From: an uncultured Planctomycetaceae bacterium
Lineage (GTDB): Bacteria > Planctomycetota > Planctomycetia > Isosphaerales > Isosphaeraceae
Assembly: GCA_963833985.1 (NCBI GenBank)
Contig: CAWIAD010000002.1
Coordinates: 2,112,001-2,176,000, forward strand
DNA length: 64,000 nt
Direction: 5' to 3'
The position numbers are program-made. Every line of letters begins with the position of its first letter. The first letter of the stretch is position 1. Below, one piece after another: positions 38,101 through 44,100 of the stretch.

Positions 38101-41100
38101 ACGTTGCTGTCGGTGTGCTCGGGAGCGACCTTGAGATGGCCGCCGACGTGGTGGCGGGCGAGCTCGTCCATGTACTCGGGCGATTTCTGCGCCAGGTCCA
38201 TGCGGATGCCCGAGGCGACGAGGACCTTGTCGATGCCGGGAACCTGGCGGCTCTCGCGCATCAGCTCCACGAGCGGGCCGTGGTCGGTGCCCAGCAGCTT
38301 GCAGATCGTGGGATGAACGCACGACAGCCGCTTGCACTTCGCCTCCACCTCCGGCCGCGTGCAGCGCATCTCGTACATGTTGGCCGTCGGCCCGCCCAGG
38401 TCGGAGACGACACCCGAGAAGCTCTTGTCGGCCGCCATCGTTCTCAGTTCCGCCAGGACCGACTCTTGCGACCGCGACTGGATGATCCGCCCCTGGTGGG
38501 CCGTGATCGAGCAGAAGGTGCAGCCGCCGAAGCAGCCGCGCATGATCGTCACCGAGTCTTTCACCACCTCGTAGGCCGGGATCTTCCGGCCCTTGTACAG
38601 CGGATGCGGCCTGCGCGTGTAGGGCAGGCCGTAGACCCTGTCCATGTCCTCCTGGCTGATCGGCAAGGCGGGCGGATTGCAGACCACCGCCTGGCGGTCG
38701 TGGAACTGCACGAGCGTTCGCGCGTTCAGCGGGTTGGTCTCCTGGTGGATGACCTTCGTTGCCCGGGCGAACGCCAGCTTGTCGGCCTTGACCTCCTGGA
38801 ACGAAGGCAGCACCAGGGCGTTCAGCGGAGGCGCCTCGCTGGCTCCCAGGGCATAGGCGACGCCGCGCATGTCCCGCAGGTCCTTGACGGTCTCTCCGGC
38901 CTCGAGCCGGCGCGCAATCTCGACAATCTGGTGCTCGCCCATGCCGAAGACCACCAGGTCCGCCTTCGCGTCGAGCAAAATAGAGCGGCGCACCGTGTCG
39001 CTCCAGTAGTCATAATGGGCCAGCCTGCGCAGAGAAGCCTCCACGCCGCCGGCGATGACCGGCACGCCAGGAAAGGCCTCGCGGGCGCGCTGGCAGTAGG
39101 ACAGCGTCGCCCGATCGGGGCGCAGGCCAATTTGCCCGTCGGGGCTGTATGCGTCGTCGTTGCGCACCTTCTTGTTCGCGGTGTAATGGTTGATCATGCT
39201 GTCCATGTTGCCGGCGCTGATGCCGAAGAACAGCCGGGGCCGGCCGAACTGCCGCCAGGGCGCGGCGCTGCGCCAGTCGGGCTGGCTGAGGATCGCAACG
39301 CGAAACCCGGCCGCCTCGAGCACCCGTCCCAGAATGCCCATCGCGAACGCGGGATGATCGACGTAGGCGTCTCCAGTCACGAAGACGACGTCGACCTCGT
39401 TCCAGCCCCGCGCTTCCATCTCCGCACGCGACGCCGGCAAGTGTGGCAGCGTCAGCGGAACAACCGGCAGCACTGGAAGTTGCGTCGGTGCCGCGTTGGG
39501 GTCGCTTGGCCGCGTGGTGGCGCAGGTGGTGTTCGTGAAATCAGGCGTCATGCGATTCGTCTGCGATGTTCAAAGGCAACTACAAGAAAGCGTTACGCCA
39601 AGAGTATTATGGCTTTGCAGTCAACCGGGGAACATGTCACTTCAGCGGATTCACCCGTGGATCGATTTTACAGGATCGTCAATTCCATCAGCGCGGTCAT
39701 TCTGATCGTGGGATTGAGCTACGGTGCTCTGGTCGTGGTGATCGGCGTGCGCGATGCGTTCAAGCCTGCGGACTGGGTTGAGCTTCACCTGGAGCATGTC
39801 CCGGAGAGCGTCGATAAGATCTTTGTGGTCGCCAGGCGCCAGGACACGACGTTTCCTCTGGGATGGTACTTTTTCAAGGTGCTGGCCTGGTCAGGGTCGT
39901 CCCACGACGTTGGGGAGATGTGGTACACGAACACAGGCAGGGACCAGAGAAAGGGAGATGTCCGCTGGGCATCCGCCGATTCGTATGGCATCCTGGCACG
40001 CCTGAAGTCGGGCAAGTGGGTGCTGTGGTGGCTCGAGCCGAAGTTCATAGCGGGTCCATCGAACTGGCGCTACCTGTTTGGAGGCGGCGAAACCGTGGTC
40101 ATCCAGACTCTGGGAATCGAGTCGGCGGAGGATGCGCCCGATCGCTGATCGACCAGGTTCGGACGCACGATTGACGGTTTTCCCCGGTGGCTAAGCAGGT
40201 TCGCAATAATTCTTTGACAGGCATTCATCGGGTTGATGCGATCCTGGATGACCGGAAGGCCGCTCTTTGTGGGACACGATTCCGGTGCGCCGTGGAAAGG
40301 TGTTGGTCTTCAGTGGGTGTAACTCCCACCCGGCAACTGGGTCGCTCCAGCCGGTAGCTATCGGAGCGGCGGTGGAGGAGACGAAACCGTCGGAGCCTTC
40401 GAGACAGATGTGTCGCTTGGCGATGCAGCGAACCGACAGGCCGTAACGCGAGTGAACGTTGAGCAGGCCTCGAAAAGTCCAATGTGGTCGCCGACCTTGC
40501 TGGAATATGGGGAAGGCCGCCGTCGCTGGGGATGAAAGGGAAACGGTTGGAATAGGCCGCCCCACGAGCGATCAGAACCCAGCGGGCCACCGGGGTATTG
40601 ACGACGGCATGTCGGCACACGGAGATCAACACAACACGGGAAACCCCAAGCGGTGAGGGCGCGTGACCCTCAACCGGACGCCCGCGAGGGACCGGCCGGG
40701 CTGCCTGGGGTGGCGGAGAGGCCCGTAGTACCGTCGACGCCGGGTAACTCCGGTCGAGGGAAGGGGCCTTGGTTCAAGGTCAACGCAACAAGCGGCAGAC
40801 AGCCGGGAGATTGGCGTGAGTCTATCACCTCCACTGAAGGTCGGGAAGTTGCAGACGGCGTTGCACACCAAAGCGAAGAACGCGCCCAACTATCGGTTCT
40901 ACGTCCTGTACGACAAGATTTATCGACGTGACGTTCTGGGATTCGCCTACGAACGCTGCCGTGCCAACGGCGGCGCGCCGGGGATCGACGGCCAGAGTTT
41001 CGCCGACATCGAGGCGTCCGGGAAGGAACGATGGCTGGACGAACTGGCGGAACAACTTCGTAAGGAGACGTATCAACCCCAGGCGGTGCGGCGCGTGTAC

Positions 41101-44100
41101 ATCCCCAAAGGGGACGGCAAGCAAAGGCCGCTGGGCATTCCTTGCATCAAGGATCGTGTGGTGCAGATGGCTGCGGTGCTGGTCTTGGAGCCGATCTTCG
41201 AGGCCGACCTGGAGCCGGAACAACACGCCTACCGCCCGGAGCGCAGCGCCCTGGACGCCGTCCGCGAAGTCGAACGGCTGCTCAAGACGGGGCACACCGA
41301 GGTGGTGGACGCGGACTTATCTGGATATTTCGATAGCATACCCCATTCCGAGTTAATGAAATCGGCGTCACGGCGCATCAGCGACGGTCGCGTCCTGCGG
41401 CTGATCAAGATGTGGCTGGAAACACCGGTGGAAGAAACCGACGGGAAGGGGCAGCGCCATCGAACGACCCGGAATAAAGACCAGGGGATGGGTACACCGC
41501 AAGGTGCACCGATCTCACCATTGTTGTCAAGCATCTACATGCGACGATTTGTGAAGGGATGGAAGACTGGTGGACACGAGCGGCGTCTGGTCGCGCGAAT
41601 CGTCAACTATGCGGACGACTTCGTCATCTGCTGTCGCGGCACGGCCGAAGAGGCCATGACGGTGATGCGGAAGATGATGTCCAGGCTGAAGTTAACGGTG
41701 AACGAGACCAAGACGCGGCTGTGCCACCTGCCTGAGGAGACGTTCGACTTTCTGGGTTATACCCACGGCCGGAACTACGACCGACGAACGGGCCGATCCT
41801 ACATAGGGTCACGCCCATCGCGGAAGAAGATCATTCGGCTGTGCAGCGAGATCAGTGCGATGACGACGCGCCAGACCACTGGACAGGACGTCGAGATGCA
41901 GATTGGTCGGATCAATCGCAAGTTACGCGGTTGGTCCAACTATTTTCGCATCGGAACGGTGAGCCCAGCCTATCGCCAAGTCAACCACCACGTCCGCTAC
42001 CGGGTACGTCAGTGGTTGTGTGCGAAGTTCAAGGTGCCGGGTCAGGGGCTCAGACGCTACCCTGACAGATACCTGCACCAGGAGTTGCATCTTTACCAGC
42101 TGCAACGAACCTAGCCGCGATGGTTTCGTGAGCGAACGTGTGAACTCAACCGATGAGACAAGCCTTGTCCGAAAGCTGGATGCGGGAAAACCGCCCGTCC
42201 AGTTTGATGAGCGGGGTGTGGAAACGAGGCCCAGCCGAGCCATCGACTCGAGCCCACCGCGCCACACCTCGACTCTACATCGTGTCACTTCTTCGAGCTT
42301 GTCGTGGGACACGACACCAATCGTGTCACTTCTTCGATCTGATGGACCAGGAATGGCACGATTGGAATCGTACCCCACGAGAATGGAATGGCACGATTGG
42401 AATCGTACCCCACGAGGAGAGCGGCCAGGCAGGGCTATCAAGTGGGGCCCTCTCCGAGAGCTGGGCGGGCGAAACGACAATTCTCGTCATCACTGGATAT
42501 TGATAATAATCGAATGACCATTCCCGAAACGGATTCGCGAGCCGACACAGGACACCTCGTGGATGAGCAGATTGCCGCCGAGCCGCCACTGGCCGCGCCC
42601 GGCTTGCCCGCCGATGCCCGGCCGCTGCCGATGGAAATTCATCTGGGCAGGCTTCGTCGGCCTCTGGCCGTAGCCGGCGTCGTAGAAAACGGAGTTGTCC
42701 GTCCTCTCGACCCCTCGGTCACGCTCCGGGAACATTCGCGAGTCATCATTATTGCCAGTGAGCCGTGACGAGAAGTGAGATCGTTTTACCAACGCATCTC
42801 AATCCCAGGATCCTGGACGCCAGGACGCGCCGACGTTCTGGCGGAGGGATTCCTCTCGTCTCGAAGGTGGCCTCAGCAGTGCGTCGATCATCCGCAAGAA
42901 GCCGATGTGCACCGTCCTGGCCTCCGGCCGCGTCTGGAGTGCGCTCAAGTCAGCTTCGACAAGTGCCTCGGCCTGCTTCAGGTCGACCAGTGCCCACGCT
43001 GCCAACCAGTTCTCGCCGGCGATCGAGGCCAGCTCGGCGGGGCTCAGTCCGCTGCGCACTTCGATCTGGCCCAGGATGATTTCGGCCGCGGCCGGATCAA
43101 GCAGGGCCACAAGGGGTGCGGCGATGGTGGCCGAGAGCGTCTGCATGGCCGGGTCGCTGAAACCAGTCTGGCCGTCGGGCCGGGCCGCCATGACTTGCAT
43201 CAGAACCGCATTCATGTCCGGGTAACCGATGCGCCGGGCATTCAGCGCGATCCCGGCCGAGGAGGCCAGAGCGCCGCCGAAATAGACGTAACTGCCGAAT
43301 TCCTGCGGCCTGTCAATCGGCAGTGCCAGGGCGCGGTCGATCAGCTTGCAGGCTCGGCTCCTGTCCCTGGGCGCGATCGCCACCGCGAGCCAGCCCAGAG
43401 CCTCGGCCTGATGTTTGAGGGAACCCTGTCCCTCGGTCATCCCATCGACGATCGTGACTGCCTTGTCGGGCTGCGTGGGTGCAATCGCGTAGGCGACCTC
43501 GGTCTTCAAGGTCTGCGGCAAGCTGGTGCTGGAATCCAGCGAAGCAACGAGCGCCAGGGCGCGGTCGGGAAGAGCGGCAGCGATGCCCTCGACGATGAAC
43601 CCGGTGTAGCGATCCTTGTCGCGACGCTCCTTGATCGGCTCGATCAGCGCGAGGGCTCGCTCCAGGTCGATCGGTGCCAGCGCCCTCGCCACGATGCCTC
43701 GTGCGTAGCCGTCCTGCCCCACAGTGCCCAGCGTGGAGGCGGTCTTCGCTGCATCTTCGATGAGTTTGCGGCCAGCCTCAGGTTTGCCGACCTGAACGAG
43801 CACCGCGCCCGCCCGGGCCTGCTGGTCGCACGACCGGGCACGCAGCGCGGCCTCCTGGGCAAAAAGCCACGCCTTGTCATGGTCGATCGGCAGGAACTCC
43901 CCGGCAAGCTGCTGGAGGTGAAAGCCGGCGTTGTTTCCATCGTCCTGGGCGAGCAGTTTGACGGCCGCGGGAGCGTCGGTCTCAGCCAGGCCCCGCGCTT
44001 TGCCCGTGACGACTGAATCATCGAACCGGTTTCCAAGCTCGGTCGACCACCTCAGGGCGAGCTCCGGATCGATGCTGGCCATGGGCTCGACCAGGGCCCA

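Follow-up and report, generated by a model that had tools for sequence, protein, structure and literature searches.

The window analysed here, a 64,000-nt stretch of a contig (CAWIAD010000002.1) from an uncultured Planctomycetaceae bacterium, contains at 40285..42278 on the forward strand a group II intron of 1994 nt with IIE/IIF-type RNA, which is recognized by Rfam (D1D4-4 at 98.9 bits, and Intron_gpII), supported by its other copies, and bounded by GTGCG and CTAC. It has the GUGYG...AY ends, domains I-VI, branch A, and RT/maturase ORF in domain IV that define group II introns. The preliminary description rightly saw an intron here, but its span (40269-42294) adds both halves of the repeat that the intron interrupts. 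The ORF (40816..42114, forward strand), uninterrupted in this and only one other copy of the genome, encodes an RT/maturase of 432 aa with a YADD motif that matches TIGR04416 at 356 bits (cut-off 300). A domain search of this protein returned only RVT_1 and GIIM and no HNH match; the protein ends after GIIM and lacks the D/En domain, as do the proteins of the class F / IIF assemblage (g2-g4 plus basal F). It is 50% identical to the protein of Ni.ha.I1 (g3/F) over 431 aa, 36% to g2, and 30% to g1, and in a FastTree phylogeny built without class E, g4, and basal F references Ni.ha.I1 falls into a group that is sister to the large clade of relatives considered below. The intron thus appears to be a group II intron that is related to class F and has no endonuclease.

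The segment 42173..42278 (forward strand) comprises domain V, with an AGC triad and a 5-nt GAAAA loop, and domain VI, whose bulged A is at 42272, and alpha' (GAGCGA, 40566..40571, forward strand), as read from alignments, is complementary to alpha (TCGCTC, 40342-40347). The alpha' element is located 3' of EBS1 and in short relatives is placed within the terminal loop of a stem-loop, as in IIE/IIF introns; an alpha' at the terminus of the DId3 stem-loop and a 5-nt domain V loop, described as common to E and F (PMC3753933), are both found in this intron. Like the class F / group IIF introns Ni.ha.I1 (g3), D.a.I1, Ge.ur.I1, and Pe.th.I2, it combines the lack of En, a length of about 2.0 kb, and a protein in the range of 430-440 aa with alpha' in a terminal loop, a 5-nt domain V loop, and EBS1/2/3 (PMC3552965, PMC3753933), but unlike them it carries an additional hairpin in domain I (40538..40563, forward strand), which has a conserved loop, TGGAATA, and is inserted beside alpha'. 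This hairpin is not a targeting element; it was rejected as such since it is also present in the relatives L247 and L267-L270, which insert into unrelated, AT-rich targets.

The intron interrupts a palindrome that belongs to a larger, composite (BIME/REPIN-like) repeat element. The left part of this element lies at 40201..40268 (forward strand), and the segment 40201-40284 has 29 matches of at least 60 nt in the genome (82-100% identity). The 5' half of the palindrome (40269..40284, forward strand) consists of a GTGG tag, the 5' arm, and the loop and contains the IBS2 core GGAC (40272-40275) and IBS1 (ATTCCG, 40279-40284), while the 3' arm (42279..42288, forward strand) begins with IBS3, the A at 42279. 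Further downstream follow a second, empty palindrome of the GGAC subtype with a mismatched IBS1 (42304..42329, forward strand) and, in the opposite orientation, two unoccupied GGGT-subtype palindromes (42353-42378 and 42388-42413, reverse strand), in which IBS1 is intact and IBS2 mismatched. In the target, GACACGAT TCCR precedes the cut and ATCGTGTC follows it, so that the cut separates the 4-nt loop from the 3' arm. It is displaced by 2 nt in the 3' direction from the symmetry axis and does not fall exactly at the centre of the palindrome as was initially stated.

The palindrome family is larger than the about 55 hairpins estimated before, with approximately 188 uninterrupted copies in 77 clusters compared to a single match for the reversed-consensus control. 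Both orientations occur in 37 of the 77 clusters, and 169 of 172 palindromes are intergenic according to a crude gene caller. GTAG-type REPs are defined by a 6-9 bp stem that carries a GT(A/G)G tag at its foot (PMC3733652), and the family, with GTGG(G) followed by an 8-bp stem and a 4-nt loop, a high copy number, an extragenic location, and inverted dimers and clusters, resembles the GTAG/GTGG REPs that accompany RAYTs; the word "intron" is absent from PMC3733652. Unlike in RAYT-REP systems, no cognate RAYT was found in this genome (best 31%), and the nearest repeat is more than 10 kb away from its seven Y1_Tnp matches. In L139 and L160 (two genomes among 79 pattern loci), the palindrome of this genome does stand on either side of a RAYT-like gene; the RAYT-like fragments match NF047646 at E-values of 1e-15 and 2e-5 but do not reach the cut-off. 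The earlier regex counts of 111 and 16 were reproduced, but eight of the 16 sites described as unoccupied read GGGATAC, which mismatches EBS2, and this variant is occupied in none of 10 cases. Several of the listed positions were counted along the reverse strand: C1:577070, C1:1164811, and C1:3335244 are in truth C1:2934051, 2346310, and 175877, and the tandem trio at C2:1230794-1230860 corresponds to four tandem copies at C2:5414766-5414865.

Blastn of the genome yields 11 complete intron copies (99.2-100% identical), one further copy split across two contig starts, and a degenerate copy (94-96% identical, C2:4628477-4627313) that was not listed before; both of these additional copies, too, lie inside the REP-like repeat. 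As had been reported, 10 of the 11 complete copies interrupt the palindrome at one point, and in total 12 of 13 copies reside in a palindrome, all in one register. The exception, C2:1011493, is not in random DNA: its site belongs to the tail of the composite repeat element described above, and a palindrome is about 45 nt away. A 2011-bp insert, the recombinase element, is present in nine of the 11 complete copies, which bears out the proposed nesting of repeat, intron, and recombinase element. The second intron copy of the window (31754..37057, forward strand) occupies an equivalent site in another repeat cluster and contains the serine-recombinase element (32984-34994) as well as an ISAs1 (35542-36824). 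As a guide to leading and lagging strands, the GC skew of the genome is weak and often changes sign. Among sequencing runs the best share was 0.18, and none was a close match.

The intron RNA is complementary to its target at three elements. EBS1 (TGGAAT, 40501..40506, forward strand; intron nt 217-222) is the loop of a domain I hairpin, also in the consensus fold, and provides the six top covariation pairs with exon positions -1..-6 (48 junctions). EBS2 (40477..40482, forward strand), with the core GTCC at 40477-40480 (intron nt 193-196), is a single-stranded linker in the consensus fold, and its nt 194 forms a Watson-Crick pair with exon -11 in 52 of 57 junctions, with a compensatory T/A switch (A:T 28, T:A 24). 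In this genome, the AA after the core may contribute a further pair, with T-15; for the clade as a whole a 6-nt EBS2 was discarded, as nt 197-198 pair in only 2/57 junctions. EBS3 (U, intron nt 314, 40598..40598, forward strand) pairs with exon +1, which is A in 8, G in 2, and T in 3 of the 13 sites, and over 46 sites its complementarity is 0.78 against an expected 0.37. The IBS2 core GGAC is found in 13/13 sites and a fully paired IBS1 in 10/13; the outlier site, where the REP stem or hairpin is absent, forms 6/6 pairs with EBS1 and 6/6 with nt 193-198. Two near-identical copies at sites with only four of six IBS1 pairs count against the pairing account. A second TGGAAT (nt 264-269) was rejected as EBS1 because it is invariant across relatives with differing exons. 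A match over 8 bp between nt 277-284 and exon -19..-12 was discarded too, since it overlaps alpha' and the extra hairpin and since L002 and L005, without the C run, still have GGGG targets.

Among the relatives (57 junctions from 24 genomes), EBS2 is constantly G[A/T]CC and EBS1 occurs in 28 variants. In this clade 42 of 57 junctions follow a G[GT]G[AT]C (GGG[A/T]C-type) motif at a constant distance, compared to 0/62 outside it, and in the protein tree the motif is found in 18/21 clade members versus 0/33 others (support 0.999; both trees FastTree with SH-like support), a contrast that is partly circular because the counted motif includes the IBS2 core. This target niche is kept in 22 of 24 genomes. 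Against the pattern count 15 of the 57 junctions, which are without the motif, and two sites that look intragenic (L043, L052). In close relatives the distance to the motif remains constant whether the cut is in mid-stem, at the stem end, or without a nearby inverted partner; at clade sites with both flanks such a partner lies within 40 nt in only 2/18 cases, the cut being in or at the end of an arm and not behind the loop. Four target motifs are repeats, and several are multicopy sequences flanking Y1 (RAYT/TIRYT-like) transposases, mostly without a local hairpin. The copy numbers of target motifs were 112, 46, 29, 11, and 3 (control 1-2) in a first count, 51, 25, 9, 1, and 16 (control 0) in a second, and 35, 134, 12, 61, and 40 (controls 4, 2, 9, 3, and 3) in a third. 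The GGGGTCAG-type pattern is not clearly above background, GGGGTCARACYTT is missing from 2/5 genomes, the inverted-pair pattern is present in only 4/10 genomes, and GGGGTCRGRYC, at 0.9-2.3 times the control, was uninformative. Near-identical inverted GGGG[AT]C flanks occur at 5/30 Y1_Tnp loci (L315, L328, L330, L333, and L335), three of which match intron targets, so that some relatives' target families have the GGGGWSAS-type inverted repeats around a Y1 transposase gene that characterize the TIRs of TIRYTs (PMC6006769); the relatives' targets fit the consensus GGGG[AT][CG]A[CG] wholly or at 7/8 positions. In L253 the intron is found 41 nt before the start of a Y1 transposase; L254, being truncated at its 3' end, was dropped as a clean example of an intron in a TIR. 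At least three other related intron lineages insert into these repeat families too, but in a different register or on the other strand (7 and 5 rows; L399).

Judged from sequence, the intron probably represents a case of pairing-based homing tuned to RAYT-associated REP repeats, within a clade that is anchored by EBS2 and re-tunes EBS1. Retrohoming would proceed by ordinary IIB-type RNA-DNA pairing, in which the EBS2 core pairs with exon -13..-10, EBS1 with -6..-1, and EBS3 with +1. With all three EBS adapted to the consensus sequence of a REP family that is intergenic and RAYT-associated, the repeat would offer about 35 good, harmless landing sites, in line with the earlier suggestion that the repeats, nearly all intergenic, serve as a pool of such sites. 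The cut would be at the loop edge only because of its fixed distance from the GGAC motif. In Planctomycetota, the clade would hold EBS2 on the GG[A/T]C core common to the REP/TIR repeats of Y1 transposases and adjust EBS1 to whatever repeat family the host carries. Priming may take place at the replication fork, as known for the En-less RmInt1 (PMC5894124), the protein may read G-14/G-15, and selection would favour harmless sites.

An extruded hairpin with a single-stranded loop, recognized as by IIC introns, was the target proposed in the preliminary description, and it would accommodate the 12 of 13 copies in a palindrome, the cut at the loop edge, the preference for repeats that is left after pairing (see below), and the tolerance of IBS1 mismatches at two repeat sites. 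It is nevertheless improbable, as repeats with intact IBS1, and hence an unchanged 5' side of the loop, are occupied in 8/33 cases with the IBS2 core and in 0/100 without it (p 7e-6), used and free sites show no difference in hairpin energy (p 0.77), and the weakest occupied stems reach only -2.4 kcal/mol. Moreover, IBS2 is in the 5' arm, where a folded stem would hide it, and the rarity of inverted partners at clade sites argues in the same direction. IIC and IIC-attC introns, which target terminator and attC hairpins (PMC4424553, PMC7923331), likewise insert at palindromic intergenic DNA, but they lack EBS2, have a short EBS1, and insert downstream of a stem-loop by structure, whereas here a 6-nt EBS1 and a covarying EBS2 pair with loop and arm, the RNA has an AGC triad, the cut is inside the palindrome without an effect of stability, and relatives' targets mostly lack a local hairpin. 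Ordinary exon pairing had itself been named as what would overturn the idea of a new structured-DNA target, and the mapped EBS1, EBS2, and EBS3 provide such pairing, so that this idea is not supported; single-strandedness may have a helper role. Passive spread of one insertion, carried along as the composite repeat was duplicated or gene-converted, is improbable as well. C1:2000105 and C2:1391320 have 99 nt upstream and 138 nt downstream in common, and three copies have about 95 nt of upstream sequence in common, but most pairs have less than 30 nt, the common stretches are the repeat element itself, which is found at 27-29 places and mostly intron-free, and target variants differ among copies with nearly identical introns. 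Since common flanks do not exceed 99 nt upstream and 138 nt downstream, the copies do not belong to larger duplicated segments; passive spread is largely refuted and may hold for one pair.

The pairing account is incomplete in one respect: matches to IBS1 and the 4-nt core are occupied in 8/35 repeats and in 1/76 intergenic non-repeat sites (p 4e-4), a bias that goes beyond clade-validated pairing. Parity (8/34 vs 1/8, p 0.66) is reached only if the T-15 pair is demanded, a criterion that was added after the sites were seen and a pair that forms in only 2/57 clade junctions. An additional, repeat-specific determinant, be it a protein that reads the G-rich foot (-16..-14) or distal positions of the 3' exon, or easier access where repeat clusters become transiently single-stranded, is a serious possibility, albeit short of an even chance, and extends pairing-based homing instead of replacing it. 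This bias, the conservation of G-14 (48/57) and G-15 (45/57), which EBS2 leaves unpaired, the reading of distal exons by the RmInt1 protein (PMC4615759), and the other intron lineages in the same repeats speak for it; on the other hand, the G run may be mere repeat consensus, other insertions having been removed by selection, the outlier site has T-14 and T-15, and few non-repeat sites carry G-14. Insertion at any pairing match with survival only in intergenic repeats, which agrees with 0/167 occupied matches inside genes and with the intergenic position of the repeats, appears unlikely, as intergenic non-repeat matches are mostly empty too, the copies are at least 99% identical and therefore leave little time for purging, and the match of all three EBS to the repeat consensus would be unexplained unless selection had already tuned them. 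A similarly small chance is given to a bolder version, in which the clade is a specialized parasite of RAYT/TIRYT repeats whose RNP reads the conserved foot by which the transposase recognizes its repeats (GG-GG[A/T]C), partly through EBS2 and partly through the protein, and takes advantage of repeats that are single-stranded or nicked by the transposase for access or priming without an endonuclease of its own. If true, this would tie a retroelement to a HUH transposase that has been domesticated, and would account for the convergence of several related intron lineages on the same repeats in different registers.

For homing tuned by pairing, the recognition chemistry is ordinary and the niche is what differs. 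No prior report was found in a literature search; the list of three niches for bacterial group II introns (homing sites, terminators, and attC) in the consulted part of PMC4424553 does not include REP/TIR repeats, nor does the 2025 introduction of PMC12584367, and the portions of PMC3552965 and PMC3753933 drawn on here hold no description of repeat-targeting by class F / IIF introns. The clade forms a natural retargeting series with one fixed 4-nt anchor and 28 EBS1 variants in many hosts, and would exemplify a retroelement that persists by tracking a motif another element cannot easily change. EBS2 has been reported as dispensable for IIF splicing, with a suggested role in homing (Nagy et al., PMC3753933); the 8/33 versus 0/100 split fits this role and lends it genomic support. 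Being En-less with a short, tolerant target, the intron may also serve as a model for what the protein reads.

The closest precedent is RmInt2 of Sinorhizobium meliloti GR4 (class D), which homes into the inverted repeats of ISRm17 (PMC4615759, PMC5894124). Both introns are En-less, use multicopy inverted repeats of another mobile element, and tolerate a 4-bp EBS2-IBS2 pairing with relaxed specificity. Unlike RmInt2, the intron described here is class F-related and inserts into small non-coding repeats, the REP/TIR sequences of Y1 (HUH) transposases; 22/24 genomes retain this niche, EBS2 staying fixed while EBS1 is re-tuned. The insertion sequences ISPpu9, ISPpu10, ISPa11, and ISPsy8 (PMC1525189) share the ecological niche in that they, too, find safe landing sites in REPs, but these are DNA transposons, in contrast to an RNA-guided retroelement with 12 of 13 copies in one register; a table in the same source includes a P. 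putida group II intron with two of nine copies associated with REPs.

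The genome (10.16 Mb, 65% GC, two contigs, C1 and C2; the window is C2:2112001-2176000) carries a group II intron at window 40285-42278, with Rfam D1D4-4 and domain V matches, which encodes an RT/maturase of 432 aa without an endonuclease and has its closest relatives mostly in Planctomycetota or Isosphaeraceae records, so that the host probably belongs there as well. It has eleven complete copies (99.2-100%, a handful of positions differing from the window copy), besides a split and a degenerate one. Ten of the 11 complete copies interrupt a REP-like palindrome at one point, as the preliminary description had noted, and so do the split and the degenerate copy; the cut lies at the boundary between loop and 3′ arm, however, and not at the exact centre. 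The palindrome consists of a GTGG(G) tag, an 8-bp stem and a 4-nt loop, and its two main subtypes have either GGAC or GGGT at exon positions -13 to -10, counted from the insertion point. The earlier repeat counts were reproduced, but some of the coordinates were displaced by reverse-strand counting and the real family is more than three times larger: 188 uninterrupted palindromes occur in 77 clusters, 37 of which hold both orientations (control, 1), and 169/172 are intergenic according to a crude codon-usage gene caller.

The specificity of the intron is explained to a large extent by base pairing. In a domain I alignment of 48 junctions, made after removal of 13 rows in which domain I was interrupted, the flank was short, identity was low or one intron stood behind another, the six top covariation pairs with exon -1 to -6 place EBS1 at intron nt 217-222. 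EBS2 (nt 193-196) pairs with exon -13 to -10, nt 194 and exon -11 being Watson-Crick in 52/57 junctions of the Planctomycetota clade to which the intron belongs, T/A switch included, and EBS3 is nt 314, which covaries with +1 (0.78 vs 0.37, 46 sites). All three elements match the repeat consensus of this genome, where the insertion sites hold the IBS2 core in 13/13, IBS1 in 10/13 and A or G at +1 in 10/13 cases. Domain I also contains an extra hairpin (window 40538-40563), whose TGGAATA loop is invariant among Planctomycetota relatives (L002-L071, L245, L247) and whose stem changes look compensatory.

The proposal that the intron recognizes the hairpin loop fails when occupancy is scored over 187 repeats. 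Among repeats with intact IBS1, 8/33 with a GGAC core are occupied vs 0/100 without it (p 7e-6), and the stem energies of eight occupied sites do not differ from those of 26 free ones (p 0.77, split copy left out); of the GGAC repeats with IBS1 mismatches, 3/30 are occupied. The one complete copy outside the palindrome (C2:1011493) has perfect pairing, and its site is in the tail of the composite repeat element to which the palindrome also belongs. As evidence against site choice by pairing only, matches to IBS1 plus core are occupied in 8/35 cases in repeats vs 1/76 in intergenic non-repeat sequence and 0/167 in genes, and parity between repeats and non-repeats is reached solely when T-15, a criterion added post hoc, is required. 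Subtype discrimination and residual repeat bias together indicate that pairing is necessary and sets insertion position and repeat subtype, yet that a further factor (protein contacts, access or selection) adds the bias toward repeats.

Flanks common to the copies are short in pairwise comparison, which makes passive co-duplication of intron and repeat unlikely, save for one copy pair. A 2011-bp element, by its sequence probably serine-recombinase-like, is inserted at intron nt 1227-1230 in 9/11 complete copies. The change 1245A>C is common to at least seven of these nine (one is without it, one unscored) and missing in both insert-free complete copies. The 4-kb form is likely to have moved as one piece, with the two intact copies acting in trans. 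Both contigs begin within one and the same intron copy, GC skew is weak on both with frequent sign flips, and the flanks of the intron may have been shuffled, either by misassembly at the 4-kb repeats or by copies recombining with each other. The copies are a real, recent burst, in which the mechanism is ordinary and the niche under-described. In a second copy in the window (31754-37057), the intron ORF holds the recombinase element together with an adjacent ISAs1 transposase (35605-36810, NF033564 above cut-off).

The RNA features agree with those of IIE/IIF introns in excerpts of PMC3753933. Protein identity is 50% to Ni.ha.I1 (g3, the former class F; Table S2 of PMC3552965), 36% to B.th.I3 (g2) and 30% to Sr.me.I2 (g1), and from this comparison with g1 to g3 references the intron is provisionally called class F-related. 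In titles and abstract openings of mostly open-access literature, we found no description of REP- or TIR-homing group II introns, and no paper in that literature combined group II introns and REP-associated tyrosine transposases. The nearest precedent is RmInt2, whose targets are the inverted repeats of ISRm17 and whose EBS2 pairing spans 4 bp (PMC4615759, PMC5894124, relevant passages). Two of nine copies of a Pseudomonas putida group II intron are at REPs (a table line in PMC1525189), and upstream hairpins have been the subject of speculation for IIB introns in integrons.

Domain I matches occur in 69/121 genomes of the family, many of them being more distant introns. The relatives gave 125 distinct 5′ junctions, besides nine matches without recognizable start; seven were removed (four mis-started, two intron-behind-intron, one a duplicate from the present genome), and the copy in the window was included. 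In a domain I tree with masked EBS columns, the clade of the window intron (support 0.76; 0.90 without L025) comprises 57 junctions from 24 genomes, and G[GT]G[AT]C with its last base at -10 or -11 precedes 42/57 of them (22/24 genomes) vs 0/62 outside; in a protein tree of 57 sequences, the motif is found in 18/21 clade members (support 0.999) vs 0/33 outside. This contrast is partly circular because the motif contains IBS2, and the relatives are not independent; the unpaired G run (G-14 in 48/57, G-15 in 45/57) and the repeat status of the targets are free of this circularity. In most of the genomes tested, three target motifs of relatives clearly occur in many copies; the signal is weaker for the GGGGTCAG type. 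EBS2 is GTCCAA or GACCAA in 50/57 junctions and EBS1 has 28 variants.

Near-identical inverted GGGG[AT]C flanks, corresponding to GGGGWSAS, the TIR consensus of TIRYT genes (PMC3733652, PMC6006769), surround five of the 30 Y1_Tnp loci taken from five clade genomes; three match intron targets, and in L253 the intron lies 41 nt upstream of a Y1 transposase start. What deserves follow-up is the anchor that the whole clade keeps fixed on repeats of Y1 transposases, combined with a re-tuned EBS1. An inverted partner within 40 nt is present at only 2/18 clade sites with both flanks, the cut being mid-arm in L032 and at the arm end in L004. Other lineages use the same repeats in other registers (seven rows with EBS1 on GAC/GTC itself) or on the opposite strand (five rows), and the L399 intron directly follows a perfect hairpin.

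A scan for the palindrome pattern gave at least 79 loci, all Planctomycetota among the matches listed. In two genomes (L139, L160) it stands on both sides of RAYT-like genes, 72% identical to each other, whose fragments match NF047646 below cut-off. An orthologue sought in the present genome was not found (best 31%), and 0/7 of its Y1_Tnp matches are within 10 kb of palindromes. One RAYT-like gene (C1:1082007-1082990) is flanked by another palindrome family of similar GGAC...ATTCC layout, with one extra base between motifs and no intron use, and a TIRYT-like gene (C2:6400548-6401337) has intron-free GGGAC/GTCCC flanks of the type targeted by relatives.

Tandem head-to-tail introns, two or three in a row with precise 3′-to-5′ junctions, occur at L047 (2468-4502 and on), L048 (434-6735) and L033 (820), although EBS1 finds no match in the end of the intron. 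Such arrays suggest circle intermediates or template switching. Five identical introns of one genome (L247, L267-L270) lie at unrelated AT-rich sites, in a genome that is GC-rich, and show little IBS2 pairing; this sister lineage apparently follows another strategy, of low specificity. ORFs of relatives are broken at recurrent codons ~172, 223 and 268 (L029, L036-L038, L042, L061, L065; L044-L046; L059, L074), which points to further elements that insert at set positions of the intron ORF. The window also contains a tRNA gene with a long variable arm (24016-24103, minus strand, Rfam).
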